The notes under the pieces: generated by a model | Told to the model about the DNA's origin: nothing | Seen by the model: the letters and a program-made list of their open reading frames with translations, nothing else | Databases searched by the model: none | In this document: positions 11,884-64,000 of the stretch, in pieces | How the letters are laid out: each line of letters begins with the position of its first letter | Numbering within the stretch: the stretch's first letter is position 1 | Source of the DNA: Eledone cirrhosa | Taxonomy: Eukaryota | Assembly: GCA_964016885.1 (NCBI GenBank) | Contig: OZ024744.1 | Location: 31,682,001-31,746,000, forward strand | DNA: 64,000 bases | Direction: 5' to 3' | Program-made: the position numbers and the translations under genes

Positions 11884-12469
11884 TATTGTTATACTTTGGG
11901 AGGGTCATGTTGCCAATAAGAAACACACGCACCAGTTGCTTTCACTTCAATTTATTATTATAATAAATTTATAATAAATTTATAAATTTATAAATTTCTG
12001 GTTGGTTGGTTGGTTCCACAACCAGATAGTTGTTTATATATTGTCATAGTTCTTTCGTCACACACTCTGTGACCTCTTCAGTGACTGGGGATTCCTTTCT
12101 TTGTTTCTGTGCCTCTCCTTTGTTCTGTCCTACGCCATTTTGTTTCTGTGTGAAACAAAATGGCGTAGGACAGAACAAAGGAGAGGCACAGAAACAAAGA
12201 AAGGAATCCCCAGTCACTGAAGAGGTCACAGAGTGTGTGACGAAAGAACTATGACAATATATAAACAACTATCTGGTTGTGGAACCAACCAACCAACCAG
12301 AAATTTATAAATTTATAAATTTATTATAAATTTATTATAATAATAAATTGAAGTGAAAGCAACTGGTGCGTGTGTTTCTTATTGGCAACATGACCCTCCC
12401 AAAGTATAACAATATCGGTTTCAACACACGATTTCAGATAAAGAATCTTGCTAAACAAATTCAAAAACG

Positions 12470-12470
<1 letters not shown>
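11884..12470. mobile_element. Palindromic PLE pLTR insertion (263-bp arms 11884-12414, 5-nt loop)
   Basis: Arms are reverse complements about position 12149; the right arm runs into [22 protein letters not shown], homologous to the PLE ORF start at 32882. Confidence 0.92.
12213..12255 (+). ncRNA. Type I minimal hammerhead ribozyme (mirror copy on minus strand 12043-12085)
   Basis: gtca CTGAAGA g gtcaca gagtg tgtgac GAAA gaac TA tgac. Confidence 0.8.
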
Positions 12471-12676: not shown

Positions 12677-12846
<170 letters not shown>

Positions 12847-12865
12847 TATATATATAAATATATAT

Positions 12866-13320
12866 ATAGTGTATTTTACAATATACTGTATGCTTAATTA
12901 AAAGCATTTCGAAGACCTTATGCTATTCTTTTAGAGTAGTGACAGTCTCACTTACTTTAAATTTTCAGCAAACCAAATCTAATTTTCAATATCTGCTTGA
13001 TCGGCAACCGCTCTGTATAATCACTTGCTGAGTATTACTAGAAATTCTATAAGAATCAAACATTCATGATTTTTCAGCAAACAGGTGGAGTACTTGGCTT
13101 TGATAAGTACCAATCAGTACGAAACATAGCTCTGTCGGCTTTATCTCCCCTTGTTTGCTGAAAATTTAAAGTAAGTGAGACTGTCACTACTCTAAAACAA
13201 TAGCATAAGGTCTTCGAAATGCTTTTAATTAAGCATACAGTGTATTGCAAAATACACTATATATACATTCATATATATATATATATATAGCTATTTCAGA
13301 GCGCCAATTCTAATTTTCAA
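12866..13320 (+). mobile_element. Retrozyme-like element R1: ~331-bp monomer (12973-13320) with an inverted partial copy at its 5' side (12866-12973)
   Basis: ccaa(a/t)tctaattttcaa at 12973 and 13304; internal (TA)n; hammerhead; no ORF. Confidence 0.8.
13071..13164 (+). ncRNA. Type I hammerhead ribozyme, U3-A8 core variant
   Basis: ggct TTGATAA gtac caatca gtac GAAA catagctctg TC ggct; extended stem I ttttcagcaaaca/tgtttgctgaaaa. Confidence 0.8.
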
Positions 13321-14858: not shown

Positions 14859-14921
14859 ATTTTATCTGATGAAAGCACACCATAATTTAACTTGGTGTCC
14901 TTGAAATATGTATAATGAAAT
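14859..14921 (+). ncRNA. Type I hammerhead in solo pLTR (14800-15055) of the family at 50957-54371
   Basis: attttat CTGATGA aag c acacca..tggtgt c ctt GAAA tatgta TA atgaaat. Confidence 0.8.
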
Positions 14922-38009: not shown

Positions 38010-38356
38010 ATCAAACATATATTTAAATGTAGCTGTTTTTACAAAACGGTTATTTTTTTCCATTTCAGGTAGACGCGCTCCATTATCCACTTTTCTAAAA
38101 AACAAATCATACACAAAACCAGCACCAACAATTTTCCAAGAGATGTCAACATGAATGGACTTGTTATTTTTATCTAAAGACATTTTTTACAATTCCAACC
38201 CGCCCGTCCCCTCAATCTATCTTACTTCTCGTTCTTTCTTCTGATGAAGGACTAACGTCCGAAACGTTAAGACCCTCTTCCTGCTATATCAACCGTAAAC
38301 CTAATATATTCCTTCCATATACTATACCGATTGTGTTGTTATTTCTGATTACCTTT

Positions 38357-38360
<4 letters not shown>
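38010..38360 (+). mobile_element. ~350-bp non-coding hammerhead-bearing element between (TA)n tracts; second copy on minus strand 41937-42268
   Basis: Two alignable copies sharing the 3' end ttaccttttaca-(TA)n. Confidence 0.75.
38237..38272 (+). ncRNA. Minimal hammerhead motif
   Basis: tctt CTGATGA a ggac taac gtcc GAAA cg TT aaga. Confidence 0.68.
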
Positions 38361-38404
<44 letters not shown>

Positions 38405-39125: not shown

Positions 39126-39436
39126 TTATTAAAATAACAGATTAAAGTTTAAGCAAAGAATCGCTGCTTTCACCATTAACGGGATCTTCTGAAACTAACA
39201 AAGTCAATCTGTAAACGCAGAAGTGGATATTTCAAAAAACGTTGCAACCGGAGGAAGACAGGAAGACGATACTTTGGTTCGTGGAAACGTTCCCTGGCAA
39301 AGAACGGGGGAAAACGAATATAATACGTCATTAATAAATATTTGCTCTACGGTTCTTATATATTTGATATATATTTATCCTTATCGAGCCCTCTCTGGAT
39401 TTTAATCTTCAAATTTATTATTATTACTATTATATT

Positions 39437-39509
<73 letters not shown>

Positions 39510-39512
<3 letters not shown>

Positions 39513-39945
39513 CTTCCCTTGCTTTTATCGAGAATCTAATTGTAATACGTGACGTATTCTATTCTATAGCGATTAGGTCTTCAAAATGTTTATTATAAAC
39601 ATACAGAATATTTTCGAATATTCTATGTCTATATTCACATATATATCGCTATTTCAGAGCATTTATTCCAATTTCTAATTTCTGCCGGACCGGCAACCGC
39701 TCTTTCAAACCAGTTCCTGTACACAGCTAAGTATTCTATAAGTCTCTAGCTGTGTCATTCTCGATAAAAGCACTGGATATGTAGTCCTGAAGATTTCTAA
39801 TAAGAATGAAACGCGTAGATTACTTCCCTTGCTTTTATCGAGAATCTAATTGTAATACGTGACGTATTCTATTCTATAGCGATTAGGTCTTCAAAATGTT
39901 TATTATAAACATACAGAATATTTTCGAATATTCTATGTCTATATT

Positions 39946-39955
<10 letters not shown>
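39510..39955 (+). mobile_element. Retrozyme-like element R2: 310-bp monomer present as ~1.4 tandem units
   Basis: tacttcccttgcttttatcgagaat at 39511 and 39821 (offset 310), repeat ~135 bp long; hammerhead at the junction; no ORF. Confidence 0.85.
39757..39845 (+). ncRNA. Type I hammerhead ribozyme with extended stem I
   Basis: gtagtc CTGAAGA tttc taataa gaat GAAA cgcg TA gattac; attctcgataaaagca/tgcttttatcgagaat 16-bp extension. Confidence 0.85.
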
Positions 39956-39978
<23 letters not shown>

Positions 39979-40282: not shown

Positions 40283-41662
40283 TAATGGATCCTGTTAAGA
40301 ATCATCCTGTTGAGGGTCTTTGCCACAAGTGACGTCAGTGAGATCCCCCTGTAGTTGTTGGTGTTAGAGAGATCTACCTTCTTTGGCACTGGGACGATGT
40401 TACTGATCCTCCACTGATTCGGGGCAACTCCTTTCTCCAGTGCCTGGTTACAGAACCCCAGGATGATATCAAAATCACACCTCTTCATCACCTCTGATGC
40501 CACTCCATCTTCTCCATGAGCCTTGCCCTCCTTGATCCTCTTCTTGGCTCTCTGAAGCTCCTCTCGGATGGAGGGCTCTGTCTCAATATCCAGTTCTTCA
40601 AACAGCCGCCGTCACTGACTGATGAAAATCTTACAGGCTTATGGAATCCCCAAGAAGATAGTGGACCTGATATCACTGCTCTACACCAACACCAAAGCCC
40701 AAGTCATTACACCTGGTGGGATGACAGAATTCTTTGAGATACTGGCTGGAGCGCTCCAGGCAGGTACATTGGCTCCTTACCTTTTTATCATCGTAGTGGA
40801 CTATTGTATGCGCCTTGCACTGGAGAAACACCAGGACTCTGGCTTTACTGTAACACCGGCTCAGAGCAGGAGAGTTAAGGCGAAAAAGATATCAGATGCT
40901 GAATTTGCCGATGACATAGTTTTGGTGACAAATACAGTGAAGGAGGCAGAGGATTTGATGCAGGAGGTTGAGACTGTGTCGATGAGTGTGGGGCTGAGAA
41001 TGAATGAGACTAAAACAAAATATCTGGTAGAGAATGTTGAGAGGCCAGAGGGGATCAGTAATGTAGGCGGGAAGCCGCTGGAATTGGTTAAGGACTTCCT
41101 GTATTTGGGAGCAAAGATTGGGAATACGGAATATGATGTGGTTGAGAGGAAGAGCAAAGCCTGGGCGGTGTGCTACAGCTTGAGATCGGTGTGGAAGTCG
41201 GACCTTCGTAAAGACCCGAAAATCCGCCTCTTCATTGTTGTAGTAGAGTCTGTGCTGCTGTACGGATCTGAGACTTGGACACTGATCAAGAAACTCACTC
41301 AGATGGTGGATGGGTGCTACACGAGAATGCTGAGGAGGGCTCTGAACATTAATCAGTATACACTGAGGATGAAGAACTCAGAGCTGTATGGAAGCATCCC
41401 AAAAGTCAGCTCAAAAGTGACACAGAGGAGACTGAGTTTAGCTGGACATGCTCACCGACATCCAGAGTTGACATTGCACTCAGTGCTCCTGTGGGAGCCC
41501 CTACATGGACACACTGGAAGAGGAAGACCAAGGTTAACGTACGTTGATGCCCTAAGGACAGACACTAGTTTGTTGGAGACGCAGGACATGACAGCGATAA
41601 TGAGGGACAGAGACCGCTGGAGAGAACTCGTCCATGGATCTCGGGGATTTTACCCACCCTAG
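40283..41662 (+). mobile_element. RTE-type LINE 3' part with an inverted 5' segment (40283-~40620)
   Basis: Plus ORF 40622-41662 LAPYLFIIVVD..EFADDI..FLYLGA..LLYGSETW; minus NIVPVPKKVDLSNTNNYRGISLTS. Confidence 0.88.
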
Positions 41663-41887: not shown

Positions 41888-41940
<53 letters not shown>

Positions 41941-42371
41941 AAAGGTAAACAGAAATAACAACACAATCGGTACAGTATATGGAAGGCATATATTAGGTTA
42001 ACGCTTGATATAGCAGGAAGAGGGTCTTAACGTTCCGGACGCTAGTCCTTTATCAGAAGAAAGAATGAGAAATAAAATAGATTGAGGGGACGGGCGGGAT
42101 GGAATTGGAAAAAAAGTCTTTAGATAAAATAACAGGTCCATTCATGTTGACATCTCTTGCAAAACTGTTGGTGCTGGCGTTTTGTGTATGGTTTATTTTT
42201 TAGAAAAGTGGATGATGGAGCGCGTCTACCTGAAATGGAAAAAATAACCGTTTTGTAAAAAAAGCTATACTTGTGCACGTGCGAAAGCATGTGTGCGTGT
42301 GTGTGTGTGTTATTATACGTCCGTCCCAAGCTATGAAGAAAAGTATGTTAATATAAGGGTGTGTATGCGTG

Positions 42372-45245: not shown

Positions 45246-48200
45246 GGCGACCGTTGTGGTCAGTGTCCGATAATCGGACGTGTGTAATTACGGCTTACAT
45301 GAAGGCAACATACCATATATTGGAAAAAGGTTGAGCTACATTACGCGGTAAGATTACATACAATAATTCTACATAAGTGTTTGAACTGTAAGTGTGTTGT
45401 AAAACACCTATTTATATGAACGATACATACACTTATGATATATGAACGATACATATACTTTAACATATAAATGCAACGTTGTTATATTACATTTATAAAG
45501 AAATATAAAAGTAACGTTTTCGATTCAGAAACAAAAATATAAGTGTTTGAACTGTGAATGTTGTGAATATGTTGTAGAACACCTATTTATATGAATGATA
45601 CATAAACTTTAACATATAAATACAGCGTTGTTATATTATATTACATTCGTAAAGGAATATACTAAGTAACGGTTCTTTTTGTTCTCGATTCAAACGATTC
45701 AAGAACAACGTTTAAAACACAGTTGTAGAATTAAAAACTAACTGAAAAGAAATATTACCCAAGCTGTGAATAACTTTAAATTTGATTCTGACAGAACTTT
45801 GTCGTAACTTTTAAAGAAGATCATCGACTATTTAAAAAAAAATAAATACAAAATATTAGTGAATAGACGAACTCATCATGGCAAAAAGTACAAGTCTCCT
45901 TCGACCAAATCGCAATTACAACCGTTGTATACAGTGGAGCTACGAGCTTAACAAAGAATTATATGAAGCATACAAACAATCTGAACCCCAAAAGTTCGGT
46001 TTTATGCAAAGGCTAACAACTTTATGGAACTCCAAACACCCAGAATTAGACTTTTCTCCAAAGCATCTAAATGAACAGGCAAAACGTATCATTAGATGTA
46101 AATTGATACATCTAACGGAATCGAGTGATACTACAAATACAGCCCTTGTAGACAACCACCCCACCTCCACTGACAGACAAAGAGAATGGCCGGCTAAATC
46201 TAACAGTGAACAGCTCACCAACAATTTTGCTGAAATCCATCCCACTTCCACTGAAGAACAGCGAGAAAGGTCAGCTGACTCTAGTAGTAAGTGTCACCAC
46301 ATCAACAACGAGGCTGCAATTCATGACTCTACTGAACAAACAGAGCACCAAAAACTTGTGGGCACCCTACAAGTGATATGGAACGATATGTTTCAAGAGA
46401 TACACAGCCTTAATGTGAGTGACAGACCATACAACACTAGAGTCAGTAAAGAACCCACTAAATTGGAATTGGAAGCGGTGAACGAAATAGCTGGCAATTA
46501 TCTGAAGGCTATACGATCTAAAGGTGTAGAAACGACATTTGAAACGCTCAATGTTTTGTTATATGTTTCAGCTGTCACATTGCTATCATATAACACACAT
46601 CTAAAACCACGCAATCAAGATACAAACAGAAAGCCTGAACCAGCGTGGATGCGAAATTTAAAAACCAAAATTTTGTCCCTGAGACGAAGTATCTCACACA
46701 TCGCAGTCGTTATGAAATGCAACATAGAGAGAAACTTCACACGACACCAGGAAGACCTAAAGAAAAAGTTAGAGAGACGATTTGGAGATACCAAATTTAA
46801 AACTTTGAACTCCAAATTACACCAGTTGAAACAACAACTCACAGCTACAACAGAAAGACTAAAATATAAGTCAACAGCCCATAAACGACAAGTGCTAAAT
46901 AGATTGTTTGCCAGAGATCCTAAATCAGTTTATCGCAGCTTCGGTGGCAAAAGCTCAATCCCTGTAAACGACACCCCTTCAAAAGAACAGGTTGAGAACT
47001 ACTGGAGATCTGTATGGGAAACGGATGACGGATTCAACAGACAAGCTAATTGGCTAAAACAACTGGAACAGGACTACTGCCAACATGTCCAGACAAAACA
47101 ATATGACATAGATGGGTCAATACTGGAAACAGCTCTACAGAAAATGTCGAATAGGAAATCGCCAGGCCCAGACCTCATTACAGGATACTGGTTGAAGAAT
47201 TTCACTTTCTATCGGCAAGATCTCATACGGCTGTTTACAGAAACCATTAAGGGCACACAAGAACTGCCCAGATGGTTATCAACTGCCACTACTCTCCTCA
47301 TTCCCAAAAATAGCCAAACCACCCTTGCTAAAAATTACCGCCCAATTGCCTGCCAAAACATCATGTATAAATTATATACTGGGTGCCTTAACCTGTTCTT
47401 ACAGGATCACTGTGCTACCAACAACATCATAACACCTGAGCAAGCTGGTGGAAAGAGGGAGGTGTGGGGTTGCATAGATCACCTACTAACTAACAAAATG
47501 ATTCAGGAAAAAACAACAAAGAATCGCAGAAACATGACTGTCGTGTGGCTGGACTATCAAAAAGCATTTGATAGTGTACCTCATGGGTGGATTATTAAGG
47601 CTTTACAGTTAGCTAAAGTCCCACAACCATTAGTAGCTGCTGTTGAACGCCTGACCAAGAACTGGTACACCAATTTGATCCTTAGAGGTGAGAAGGAGCA
47701 GGTTAAGACTGATAGGATACATTACCAGAAGGGCATCTTTCAGGGTGATAGCTTGTCAGTACTACTCTTCGTTCTCTCACTGAATCCACTATCTTACCTA
47801 CTCAGGAAACAAGGTGGACAAAGAAGTGGGCCCAGAAGTATCTCCCATCTTTTCTTTGTTGATGACCTGAAGTTGTATGGGCCAAATATCAATGACATCA
47901 ATAAACAATTGGACCTCATTACACAATTTTCAACCGACATCAAAATGAAATTTGGTGAGTCCAAGTGTGCATATTTGGCAGTAAAACGTGGAAGAGCTGT
48001 GCCCTCCTCTAGAAATCTAGATATGAACGGCCTGACAATACAACCTCTGCAGTCAGGTGACAACTACAGATATCTTGGACAGGATGAGAATGTCAGATAT
48101 GATGGACCCATAAATAAGGAGAGAACCAGAACTGAATACCTCAGAAGAGTAAAAAAAATATGGTCATCAGAACTGTCAGCATACAACAAATACATTGCCC

Positions 48201-49470
48201 ACAATACCTATGCTGTGCCAATTCTAACGCCAACATTTGGCCTACTGAACTGGTCATTGCAAGAACTAAGTGAGATGGATGTTAGAACTCGAAAACTTCT
48301 CAGTGTTACTGGGAACTTTAACATCAATGGTGATGTGGATAGGCTATACTTCTCACGCAAGGAAGGTGGCCGGGGTCTAAAATCAATATTAACAACATAT
48401 GAGACCCGGATAGTAACACTGAAGCAACACCTTCAACAGAGGAAAAAGGTTGGCGACCATCTTGCTCAGGTTTATGAGCATGAAAAAAGAAATATCATTA
48501 GAATAGCGACTGATCTGGAGGAGAGATATGGAATAAAGCCTGATATAAATCTCTCACCCAGAGAAATCGGAAGATCCTATTCAATGTTCAAACAAGAAAA
48601 AAAAATTGACCAATTTACAGAGAAAGTTGTGCATGGATACTTGAGGCGTAAAACACAGACCATAGAGGGGATAAACCACTCAAAAAGCCTGGCATGGAGT
48701 TCCGACAAGTTTATGACATCACACCTTGAGGGATATCTCTATGCAATACAGGAACAAGAACTCCCTACCAAATATCTGCTGCACAAAAGAGGAGGGCCAG
48801 CAGCTGACAATAAATGTAGGCTATGTAAAACAAAGATCGAGGATGTAAGCCACATTGTTGCCAGCTGCGAAAGAATGTCATCTCGCTACTACCTCCCCAT
48901 GAGACACGATGGGATAGCTAGAACTATCTGGAACGCACTTCGGAAAACAAAATTAACAACAAACGAGGAAGAATATATTGAGACAGATGGCACTAAGGAA
49001 TACTGGTGGAACCTGAAAATAAAAACTGCCACCAAATTAAAGCACAACCGGCCTGATATTGTAGTTTGGGACCACACACTGAAAACGTGTTCTGTTGTGG
49101 AGATCAGCTGCCCACTTGATGTAAACGTTGTCAGAAAAATACAGGAGAAGGAGAACATCTACGGACCATTGATGAGGAGCTTACAAATCCAGTATCCAAG
49201 ATACACCTTTAGCTTCATACCCATCATTATTGGTGCTACGGGTTATATACCAACCCGCTTGGACCAAAGTATGACCGAACTTGGATTTGCGGACAAAAAG
49301 CGCAGCTCCCTAATTCATAGTCTACAAATGGCTGCGATAGCTGGCACCTTCAAAATATGCAAAACATTCTTGCGATTCAAGGGATGACAATTTCTTTTCT
49401 TTTACAACCTTGCCACCAGGAAGGTGGCCGGTCAAAAAAATATACTCGAAATTAAGAGAAAGAGAAAACA
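45246..49470 (+). mobile_element. Apparently full-length R4/Dong-type (RLE) non-LTR retrotransposon in (TACA)n
   Basis: Single intact ORF; ~630-bp 5' UTR with internal repeats; (TACA)n on both flanks. Confidence 0.92.
45878..49387 (+). CDS. Reverse transcriptase with CCHC zinc knuckle and restriction-like endonuclease (1169 aa)
   Basis: KSPGPD, NYRPIAC, WLDYQKAFDSVPH, GIFQGDSLS, LFFVDDLKLY, YRYLG, CRLCKTKIEDVSHIVASC, RHD, RPDIVVWD..EISCP..K. Confidence 0.95.
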   Translation: MAKSTSLLRPNRNYNRCIQWSYELNKELYEAYKQSEPQKFGFMQRLTTLWNSKHPELDFSPKHLNEQAKRIIRCKLIHLTESSDTTNTALVDNHPTSTDRQREWPAKSNSEQLTNNFAEIHPTSTEEQRERSADSSSKCHHINNEAAIHDSTEQTEHQKLVGTLQVIWNDMFQEIHSLNVSDRPYNTRVSKEPTKLELEAVNEIAGNYLKAIRSKGVETTFETLNVLLYVSAVTLLSYNTHLKPRNQDTNRKPEPAWMRNLKTKILSLRRSISHIAVVMKCNIERNFTRHQEDLKKKLERRFGDTKFKTLNSKLHQLKQQLTATTERLKYKSTAHKRQVLNRLFARDPKSVYRSFGGKSSIPVNDTPSKEQVENYWRSVWETDDGFNRQANWLKQLEQDYCQHVQTKQYDIDGSILETALQKMSNRKSPGPDLITGYWLKNFTFYRQDLIRLFTETIKGTQELPRWLSTATTLLIPKNSQTTLAKNYRPIACQNIMYKLYTGCLNLFLQDHCATNNIITPEQAGGKREVWGCIDHLLTNKMIQEKTTKNRRNMTVVWLDYQKAFDSVPHGWIIKALQLAKVPQPLVAAVERLTKNWYTNLILRGEKEQVKTDRIHYQKGIFQGDSLSVLLFVLSLNPLSYLLRKQGGQRSGPRSISHLFFVDDLKLYGPNINDINKQLDLITQFSTDIKMKFGESKCAYLAVKRGRAVPSSRNLDMNGLTIQPLQSGDNYRYLGQDENVRYDGPINKERTRTEYLRRVKKIWSSELSAYNKYIAHNTYAVPILTPTFGLLNWSLQELSEMDVRTRKLLSVTGNFNINGDVDRLYFSRKEGGRGLKSILTTYETRIVTLKQHLQQRKKVGDHLAQVYEHEKRNIIRIATDLEERYGIKPDINLSPREIGRSYSMFKQEKKIDQFTEKVVHGYLRRKTQTIEGINHSKSLAWSSDKFMTSHLEGYLYAIQEQELPTKYLLHKRGGPAADNKCRLCKTKIEDVSHIVASCERMSSRYYLPMRHDGIARTIWNALRKTKLTTNEEEYIETDGTKEYWWNLKIKTATKLKHNRPDIVVWDHTLKTCSVVEISCPLDVNVVRKIQEKENIYGPLMRSLQIQYPRYTFSFIPIIIGATGYIPTRLDQSMTELGFADKKRSSLIHSLQMAAIAGTFKICKTFLRFKG

Positions 49471-62319: not shown

Positions 62320-64000
62320 ACTTGCTCCTAAATATCACTAAAGCAATCGACCAGTGCTACCACTCCAGAGTCCAATACGAGAAAAAACGGCTCAAGCGAA
62401 AATATGAGTGGATCTTGTCGAAACGCCACAACGAGAACATCGACACTAACGAACAGACGGACCAGAACCACGTGGAAAACAACAACTTAACAACCGCCAC
62501 CGCCGCAACCACCAACACCGAGCCATACCTCAACGATGCGACGCACCTGGTCACCGACCTAACCGGCACTCTCACGAGCGACGAGCTGAAACTCCTACAC
62601 CTCGGACCTAAGTTCATCGTCACAGAACGTCTCGACGACAGACTCAAACTCAAACTCAAGGCCAACTTTTGTCGAGGCCAACTTTTGTCGAGCCAACTTT
62701 TGTCGAGCCGCTTACCAACTTAAATGGGTGACCGCTATCAACAGCGCCACAGATAATAACAGCGCCGACTCAACCCACCCCAAGTTCCCCACTTACCACC
62801 CCGACGACCCACTCCACCCCCCACCCACCAACCACGAACTCGACACTAAACTCATCAGGCTAAAACACTCCATCTCGGATATACTTCACAAACACACACA
62901 CACACGCACAACACATAACCTCCCCAAATCTCAACTCACCACTCTCTCCAACCTAAAATCGAAGAACCTCATCTATCTCCCCTCCGACAAGGGAAAAGAA
63001 TTCTGCGTCATCAGCAGAAAGGCCTACAACACCCTGGCCCTCCAACACCTTGACGGTGACAACCTCTACTCCAAGGTCACGGGAATCACTCCCGCACAGA
63101 TAGAAGAACACATCAACTCCGCCTGGACCAACATCTGCGACCGGCGGAAGCTCCCGAAGAAGCTGAGATACAACCTCCTCACGAGGAACAGCAGAATACC
63201 CGCCTTCTACCACCTCGTGAAAACACACAAACAGGGTCCCGACCTGAAAATCAGGCCCATCGTATCGAGCGTAGAGGGACCACTCTACAAAATTTCATGG
63301 CTCCTAGCCAGAATACTCAAACCCATCTTAGACACCTTGCCGAAACACGTTAACAGCTCCGAGGAGGTGTTGAAGCGCCTGGATCAAATGGATCCCGACA
63401 CCAGAAAGAATAACAGATATGCTTTCAGCCTTGATGTAGTCGCTCTCTACACCTCGGTCCCGGCACTCCCGGCCGTCAATATACTAATGGAACGCGTCCA
63501 ATCCACCGACCTACACTGCTTCGGGCTCACCACCACTGACATCCACCAACTCCTATCCATCGTCGTCGACAACACCTACTTCGGATTCCTTGACCAAATA
63601 TACCAACAAACCTCGGGATTGCCCATGGGATCAAGCCTATCAGGTGTGCTAGCGATCTCCTACATGGACAACCTCGAACGCAAGGCACTCAACGCCTGCC
63701 ACCCCAACGCCGTAGCCTTTTTCTCAAGATACGTGGACGATATCCTCATCCTCACATCTTCCCAAGACACGGCGAACAGAATCTATGAGACGTTCAACAA
63801 TACGGACGAGAACATTGACTTCAGTGTTGAACACCCCAACGAAGACGGGTCACTTGCCCTCCTCGACTTCCGAATCAACAACACGGAACAAGGAGGGATC
63901 CACTGCAATTTCTACAGAAAGGCAGCCTGCAGGGACCTATTCGTTCACTACAAGTCCCCCCTCCCTAACAGTGCCAAAAGAGGATACATCACGAACGAGA
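62320..64000 (+). mobile_element. Penelope/Poseidon-type PLE RT region, runs off the window
   Basis: LHLGPKF, PSDKGKEF, LVKTHK..IRPIVSS, SLDVVALYTSVP, GLPMGSSLS, RYVDDIL; short tandem duplication near 62665-62710 breaks the frame. Confidence 0.9.

Follow-up and report, generated by a model that had tools for sequence, protein, structure and literature searches.

The window, a 64,000-nt stretch of contig OZ024744.1 from Eledone cirrhosa, contains a non-coding, ribozyme-bearing unit that stands in 1.44 tandem copies inside a (TA)n microsatellite. The question raised by this locus is which RNA served as template for such an insertion and how its copying was primed. For animal retrozymes in general, an RNA circle as template and Penelope-like elements (PLEs) as mobiliser were proposed in 2014 and 2020, and the support added in 2026 consists of co-occurrence and trees. 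As the family to which the window copy belongs comprises more than 1,100 insertions and is very young, counts over its members can be used to address both the template and the ends.

The retrozyme copy in the window

The segment at 39510-39646 recurs exactly at 39820-39956 (137 nt, 100% identity, spacing 310 nt), and the insertion between the (TA)n runs 39431-39509 and 39949-39977 is therefore 447 nt long, corresponding to 1.44 monomers. Monomers were numbered from the first base after GUA, position 39818 being phase 1. The features of the copy are listed below.

39431-39509, no strand: (TA)n target, left flank
39510-39956, + strand: single-armed retrozyme insertion of 447 nt, 1.44 monomers; 5′ breakpoint at phase 3, 3′ end of the short type
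39510-39819, + strand: one 310-nt monomer length, of a common haplotype found in 15 of 121 typed loci
39600-39635, + strand: hairpin directly 5′ of the short start site; second copy at 39910-39945
39636-39646, + strand: short RT start site (phase 129-132) and internal TA tract (phase 133-139), read through here
39670-39679, + strand: second (tail) start site, phase 163-172, mostly 165, read through in the window copy
39757-39845, + strand: type I hammerhead with extended stem I, predicted to cleave after A39817 (from sequence and fold; sub-threshold in Rfam)
39946-39956, + strand: short start site as used by the window insertion, continuing into the target (TA)n
39949-39977, no strand: (TA)n target, right flank, overlapping the unit's own TA tract

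The monomer is low in GC (105 G+C of 310). The sequence-only reading had described a 310-nt non-coding unit with an intact type I hammerhead, starting 2 nt past the cleavage-equivalent position and ending in its own TA tract; all of this was confirmed for the window copy, with "intact" applying to completeness of the predicted ribozyme in sequence. The hairpin at 39600-39635 is a candidate RT-binding element, and it is retained with compensating sequence change in an older sister family. The tail start site is the one used by the other arm of the two-armed insertions described below. The window copy has no inverted second arm and is an ordinary single-armed, randomly 5′-truncated member of the family.

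The hammerhead ribozyme

The core of the window hammerhead consists of CUGAAGA (39787-39793), GAAA (39808-39811) and GUA (39815-39817). Stem I has 6 bp (GTAGTC at 39781-39786 with GATTAC at 39818-39823) and is extended by an internal loop and a 16-bp distal stem (39757-39772 with 39830-39845), stem II occupies 39794-39807 with a U.U pair at 10.1-11.1, and stem III comprises 2 bp in the palindrome ACGCGU. A short palindromic helix III is given, in the accessible part of PMC4209133, as typical of metazoan type I ribozymes that act as dimers. The fold had a z score of -5.9, and 0 of 200 shuffles were equally stable. As no match in the window reached the gathering score in Rfam (the best ribozyme match was HH9, at 17 bits against a gathering score of 52, E = 0.31), Rfam gives no support, and the hammerhead call is based on visual recognition of the core, on the fold and on how the sequence varies.

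The 43-nt core generated 1,361 exact matches in the genome and its reversed control generated 0, so these matches are not due to chance. No locus carries a fixed change in the catalytic core, L151 excepted (see below); N7 and loop II vary freely among loci, and position 10.1 is often back to an A-U pair. Sub-lineages of 311 nt in L031, L038, L070, L076 and L128 have one extra base 2-5 nt past the cleavage site, where an added C yields a G-C pair and a bulge in stem I.

Size and age of the family

Genome-wide counts were obtained with exact patterns in the 3.0-Gb assembly and are lower bounds. The internal TA tract was read through at least 14,202 times; short-type ends in (TA)n numbered at least 1,126 (458 with a C before the tract and 668 without), and exact tail-type ends at phase 165 at least 926. 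Reversed-pattern controls for these end and read-through counts were 0 every time. In addition, 160 stretches representing 159 loci were fetched, 25 of them picked regardless of ends and the remainder by end pattern. L031, L051 and L069 (complex or double insertions), L151, L154/L207 and the window copy (picked for their starts) and L042 (gap) were left out of the counts, and L188 and L213 out of the mosaic count. Monomers of one locus differed at 166 of 318,163 bases, and the family is therefore very young.

The unit has the characters of a retrozyme: a short (class range about 170-400 nt), low-GC, non-coding tandem monomer at many dispersed loci, a type I hammerhead in each unit as judged by sequence (Rfam score below gathering), and, in the 159 fetched loci, neither LTRs nor attached coding sequence, all arms being pure head-to-tail monomers. 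In three of four sequencing runs, of unrecorded kind, the unit was recovered as a single 340-nt contig (310 + 30), which is expected from a tandem array and from a circle alike and allows no conclusion; coverage of the PLE ORF in the same four runs was patchy or absent.

Two tandem arms and two fixed ends

Most insertions consist of two tandem arms, placed back to back and pointing apart. On C1 up to 289 Mb, all 65 divergent end pairs combined one short with one tail end (p = 3e-20), in a count that uses listed coordinates only and in which 92 of 222 ends were without an exact-pattern partner. Among the simple fetched loci 99 of 116 were two-armed, and wherever both ends were visible in fetched loci they were short plus tail (94 of 94, some loci being common to the C1 count). 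A second set gave 31 two-armed loci out of 40, with the same pairing in 29 of 29. These samples of 116 and 40 loci were partly selected on ends; in the loci picked regardless of ends, 5 of 25 were single-armed. The short ends of the fetched loci lay at phase 126-139 and the tail ends at 159-172, mostly 165, an offset of about 35 nt. The sequence-only reading was right in proposing a (TA)n target and a 3′ end fixed at the TA tract, as at least 1,126 exact ends attest; it overlooked the two-armed layout and the second fixed end about 35 nt downstream, represented by at least 926 ends.

The two arms were joined with 1-6 nt of microhomology at 50 of 99 inner junctions, bluntly at 11, with extra bases at 34 and with a longer overlap at 4. 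Cleavage sites crossed per arm averaged 4.7 and reached 27 (284 arms). The arm lengths of the same insertion were only weakly correlated (rho 0.27, p = 0.008), which does not support two enzymes working in lock-step. Both arms run antisense from the flank, and each therefore needs a sense template. An inverted 5′-truncated arm with a 30-40 bp tail on one end is the signature of PLEs (PMC8557442, PMC3846280), a tail length that the offset of about 35 nt matches, and the inverted arms and the short/tail rule together support the earlier proposal of a non-autonomous retrozyme mobilised in the manner of PLEs. Together with the haplotypes shared between arms (next section), the end rule makes a strong genomic case that a PLE primed a single RNA at two sites.

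Some loci show variants of this layout. In L057 (1491-1605), the second arm, begun at the tail site, is only about 10 nt long, and L077 (3148-3180) contains short repeated restarts at the short site. In L041 (3700-4464), a tail-type arm is directly joined within the 3′ region of a different PLE-type repeat, which could reflect a template switch or a later deletion.

One template per insertion, and its nature

Of 85 two-armed loci that were fully typed, 83 had one and the same haplotype in both arms, 32 haplotypes being distinguished; the permutation mean was 9.9 and the maximum 20. Arrays with at least four ribozymes were without a minority variant seen twice in 116 of 126 cases, and 10 of 126 were mosaic. 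A>G accounted for 21 of 42 distinct locus-fixed variants with L151 and 12 of 33 without it, compared with 16 of 166 sporadic changes (Fisher p = 3e-4 against 12 of 33). Since C>T, which is equally tolerated, made up just 1 of 42 distinct locus-fixed variants, tolerance of G.U pairs does not explain the A>G excess. The A>G change at phase 20 was found on 4 different haplotype backgrounds and that at phase 276 on 5. Clustered A>G changes in repeats are a known ADAR pattern, and we read the locus-fixed excess as putative A-to-I editing of the sense RNA template.

In one locus, L151 (C2:273.40 Mb), the private changes are ten in number and all A>G; the ten include GAAA>GGGG and are present in all 5 ribozyme copies, in both arms, and a whole-assembly search found this GGGG motif nowhere else. 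With its ribozyme inactivated the RNA could not have excised itself, and in a linear multimer each monomer would have been edited independently; L151 therefore favours a circle. In the simplest account, the circle would have been closed after cleavage, then edited, and then read round five times. Judged from these genomic patterns, it is likely that the retrozyme template RNA is a circle. Private variants are a weaker proof of this than they appear, as the two tested genome-wide, both private in the sample, turned out to be small sub-lineages, 88T being present in 5 loci and 118G in 355 monomers. Homogeneity can thus often be inherited from a homogeneous parent array, and the strict argument for a circle accordingly depends on the single locus L151.

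The alternative that survives best retains two-site, two-strand priming by a PLE and assigns the role of template to an uncleaved linear multimer transcribed from the parent array, ribozyme and circles being incidental. This would account for L054 (1709-8101), where the first two ribozymes of each arm belong to one haplotype and the following ones to another; this change, in identical order in both arms, fits a linear or multimeric template or a joint template switch. The mosaic arrays L066 and L187, the sub-lineage variants common to several loci and the apparent weakness of the ribozyme as a monomer point in the same direction, as does the Anolis PLE (PAc), which works without cleavage in vitro, uncleaved linear RNA being its main template in the accessible part of PMC11167929. 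However, a linear multimer cannot account for all monomers of L151 sharing the same ten A>G changes when the assembly contains no parent, nor can it fix a mutation of a single monomer throughout an array or produce daughters longer than their parents; moreover, fixed core changes are absent outside L151, implying that only cleaving monomers found new arrays. We therefore regard the uncleaved multimer as unlikely, and the circle as the better template. In L116 (776-4786), phase 276 of the tail arm reads A in the four initial rounds and G in the final two, and the short arm has G throughout; either a template switch or editing during the reaction, with priming at the tail site coming first, could explain this.

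It is improbable that short insertions were later expanded or homogenised as DNA, by unequal crossing-over or inverted-arm conversion, or that the second arm is a fold-back copy. Local expansion is plausible for individual loci: L187 (746-8001), with at least 23 monomers and three recurring minority variants, unlike most loci, was possibly expanded as satellite DNA, and L066, a mosaic array with recurring minority variants, looks locally expanded as DNA. Expansion as DNA is suggested in the accessible text of bioRxiv 10.64898/2026.07.22.740005, and self-priming is favoured for PLE inversions in that of PMC3846280. Against both stand the different fixed sites at which the two arms terminate and, against expansion, the low number of differences within loci given above (166 of 318,163 bases). 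Fold-back self-priming was rejected, since the inner-junction phases of the two arms lay within 10 nt of each other in 9 of 99 cases against 6.7 expected and, L054 and a duplicated locus aside, 1 of 137 sporadic variants was present in both arms.

5′ breakpoints and the cleavage site

The start of the window copy next to the cleavage site had been taken to be meaningful, and the template to be a partly cleaved multimer or a circle. A circular or multimeric template agrees with the results above; run-off at the cleavage site does not agree with the breakpoints. Only 4 of 287 5′ breakpoints lay within 5 nt of the site, against 9.3 expected, and the breakpoints lean toward phase about 70 (Rayleigh p = 0.006). 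Genome-wide, 3 loci including the window copy start at the cleavage site directly after (TA)n, compared with 1 for a control phase; we estimate that about 2-3 such starts are expected by chance. A partly cleaved multimer from which the cDNA runs off at the hammerhead cleavage site would suit the window copy, which starts at +2, and the single-armed C3 copy L207, which starts exactly at the site, but in view of these tallies it is very improbable. A start at the cleavage site was rejected as a rule, and that of the window copy is attributed to chance.

Target site and candidate partner

Target site duplications reach 14 bp in L036 and are unreadable in pure (TA)n, which is the target in nearly all of 113 loci; L044, inserted outside (TA)n, has an 11-bp duplication. 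Priming through the internal (UA)n, proposed earlier, is partly borne out: the 3′ ends do lie at the TA tract, but 668 of the 1,126 short ends are without the preceding C. Such pairing alone is insufficient, as the tail end has just 1-2 nt in common with (TA)n and L044 lies outside it.

An intact young PLE with a 770-aa RT and GIY-YIG ORF, belonging to a large and active family, is located at L047 (3340-7790), 4 kb from one array. Its end holds a hammerhead core of the U3/A8 type, and the element is two-armed with the short/tail layout. Its endonuclease region generated 150 scored matches with 98-100% identity, 149 of them without a stop and many in 775-aa frames. A CxxxxCxxC motif precedes GIY-YIG, which suggests, from sequence, placement of this PLE family in Neptune/Nematis. 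Its members insert in (TA)n, and all 6 copies in which both ends could be seen have the short/tail pairing. The tail is about 63 nt long, and its terminal 8 nt, TTTCTAAT, are the sole match to the retrozyme; with a tail of this length and only 8 matching bases, the L047 family is therefore a candidate partner.

Three other PLE-like ORFs were present among the fetched loci. The PLE ORFs near arrays (L045, L047, L048 and L060) belong to separate elements, lying across (TA)n or kilobases off, and their ends are unlike the retrozyme unit. Looking for a partner PLE by sequence similarity in the fetched loci turned up sister retrozyme families alone. The least credible explanation is that the unit is debris, the truncated pseudo-LTR of an autonomous PLE: it has all the PLE end features, and the arm in L041 adjoins the 3′ region of a PLE-type repeat, but no RT and GIY-YIG ORF joined to the repeat was found in the fetched loci, and the pure monomer arms of all 159 and the dissimilar ends of the separate PLEs nearby speak against it. 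Constant attachment to PLE coding sequence, which the sequence-only reading had named as the mark of a plain pLTR, was not seen in the fetched loci.

Other elements in the window

An older sister retrozyme family, with the core UUGAUAA, is present at 12845-13320 and about 2020-2280 (71-78% identity, phases 59-165); the copy at 12845-13320 has two arms, of which one has a short end and the other a tail end. This family is also represented in L044, L053, L084, L126 and L143, and a further variant in L039 and L055. The region 12000-12470 is a two-armed remnant with a hammerhead core at 12081 (- strand) and 12217 (+ strand), and matches the 3′ region of the L048 PLE-like ORF. Additional CUGANGA...GAAA motifs lie at 14866, 32660, 36841, 38241, 42472, 54272, 54684 and 59833, several of them in repeats that match the PLE 3′ regions of L045 and L060. 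A 104-nt inverted repeat (38298-38401 and 41896-41999; 97%, partly TA) surrounds 3.5 kb including the retrozyme copy, and may be a further two-armed element nested in this TA-rich region. RT-bearing open frames were found at 45863-49384, 40619-41659 and 62590-63999, one encoding 1174 aa with RVT_1 and zf-RVT and two being RT fragments.

Comparison with known elements

Comparisons in this section refer to the accessible parts of the papers cited. The metazoan non-LTR retrozymes (PMC7229834; bioRxiv 10.64898/2026.07.22.740005) likewise are non-coding, low-GC tandem monomers of about 300 nt with a type I hammerhead and thousands of copies. In PMC7229834, circles are proposed to be copied to tandem cDNA, probably by PLEs, and circular templates had been proposed for PLEs in PMC4209133; the preprint ties retrozymes to pLTRs by co-occurrence and trees, and its accessible text includes no mollusc and no end analysis. 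The retrozymes of both papers are head-to-tail, whereas those described here are two-armed. A term search found no "inverted" in PMC7229834 and no "tail" in the preprint, and fixed ends, two-armed insertions, one haplotype per insertion and edited templates appear in the accessible parts of neither. Metazoan retrozymes are documented there by northern blots and RNase R, and the Eledone retrozyme is described here from DNA. The literature examined, as far as accessible, contained no cephalopod retrozyme family. No description of the family, of two-armed retrozyme insertions or of edited templates in them was found in the openly accessible literature. As far as this literature shows, the Eledone unit is a previously undescribed family within the animal retrozymes.

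In L1 twin priming, the two target strands prime one RNA and the cDNAs join by microhomology. The retrozyme differs in that the second priming occurs at a fixed site 35 nt from the first, the same sequence is covered many times by each arm, and there is no poly(A). The endonuclease PLEs (Penelope/Poseidon PAc, PMC11167929; Adineta Penelope, PMC3846280; Neptune/Naiad, PMC8557442) resemble the retrozyme in the head-to-head inverted 5′-side arm, in having two internal RT start sites and in a tail of 30-40 bp that is confined to one end. Their targets are AT-rich or (TA)n, with duplications of 8-11 bp, compared with the 11 bp of L044. In PMC11167929, the PLE tail falls between two RT start sites that are used on both nicked strands in vitro. 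Unlike these elements, the retrozyme has no ORF, forms long homogeneous multimers in both arms, and carries a canonical hammerhead with extended stem I in place of a minimal one; the rule of one short and one tail end, optional in endonuclease PLEs, is strict in the retrozyme. Chlamys elements such as MRC1 (PMC8557442) are also non-autonomous PLE derivatives with multicopy head-to-tail insertions, but have no canonical hammerheads and share 3′ sequence with an autonomous partner, none of which was found here.

Proposed mechanism and implications

We consider it likely, from the genomic evidence, that a PLE protein primes twice on a single, sometimes A-to-I-edited RNA circle and then rolls round it. 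Transcription of an array would give a multimer for the hammerhead to cut, probably in dimeric form since stem III is just 2 bp, and a host ligase would close the 310-nt circles, as PMC7229834 leads one to expect; some circles would likely be A-to-I edited. A PLE RT/GIY-YIG protein would nick both (TA)n strands about 11 bp apart, the distance given by the duplication in L044. One 3′-OH would start at phase 129-132, aided by pairing with the UA tract, and the other at about phase 165 with 1-2 nt of pairing, in keeping with the ends observed at both sites. Each cDNA would circle the template, on average 4.7 and up to 27 times as the arm lengths show, and stop at no fixed place, as the breakpoints show; the two cDNA ends would then be joined via the short microhomology or few extra bases seen at the inner junctions. 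In the window copy the short-site arm alone may have survived, having stopped by chance 2 nt from the cleavage site.

The inverted arm and one-end tail of PLEs were attributed in 2021 to "still undefined features" of their cycle. The counts obtained from this family address both retrozyme mobilisation and PLE end structure, with the two start sites named to the base. On balance, with modest confidence, we favour the broader reading that the arrays record PLE integration itself, in which a dimeric enzyme would use both strands and two fixed sites on one ribozyme-made circle, and A-to-I edits would pass into germ-line DNA. If true, L116 would be a record of editing in mid-reaction with the tail site primed first, and the tail and inverted structure of PLEs in general would be explained. 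The family also suggests that RNA editing supplies heritable variation to a mobile element, and points to a naturally occurring enzyme able to turn a small RNA circle into kilobases of concatemer within a microsatellite.
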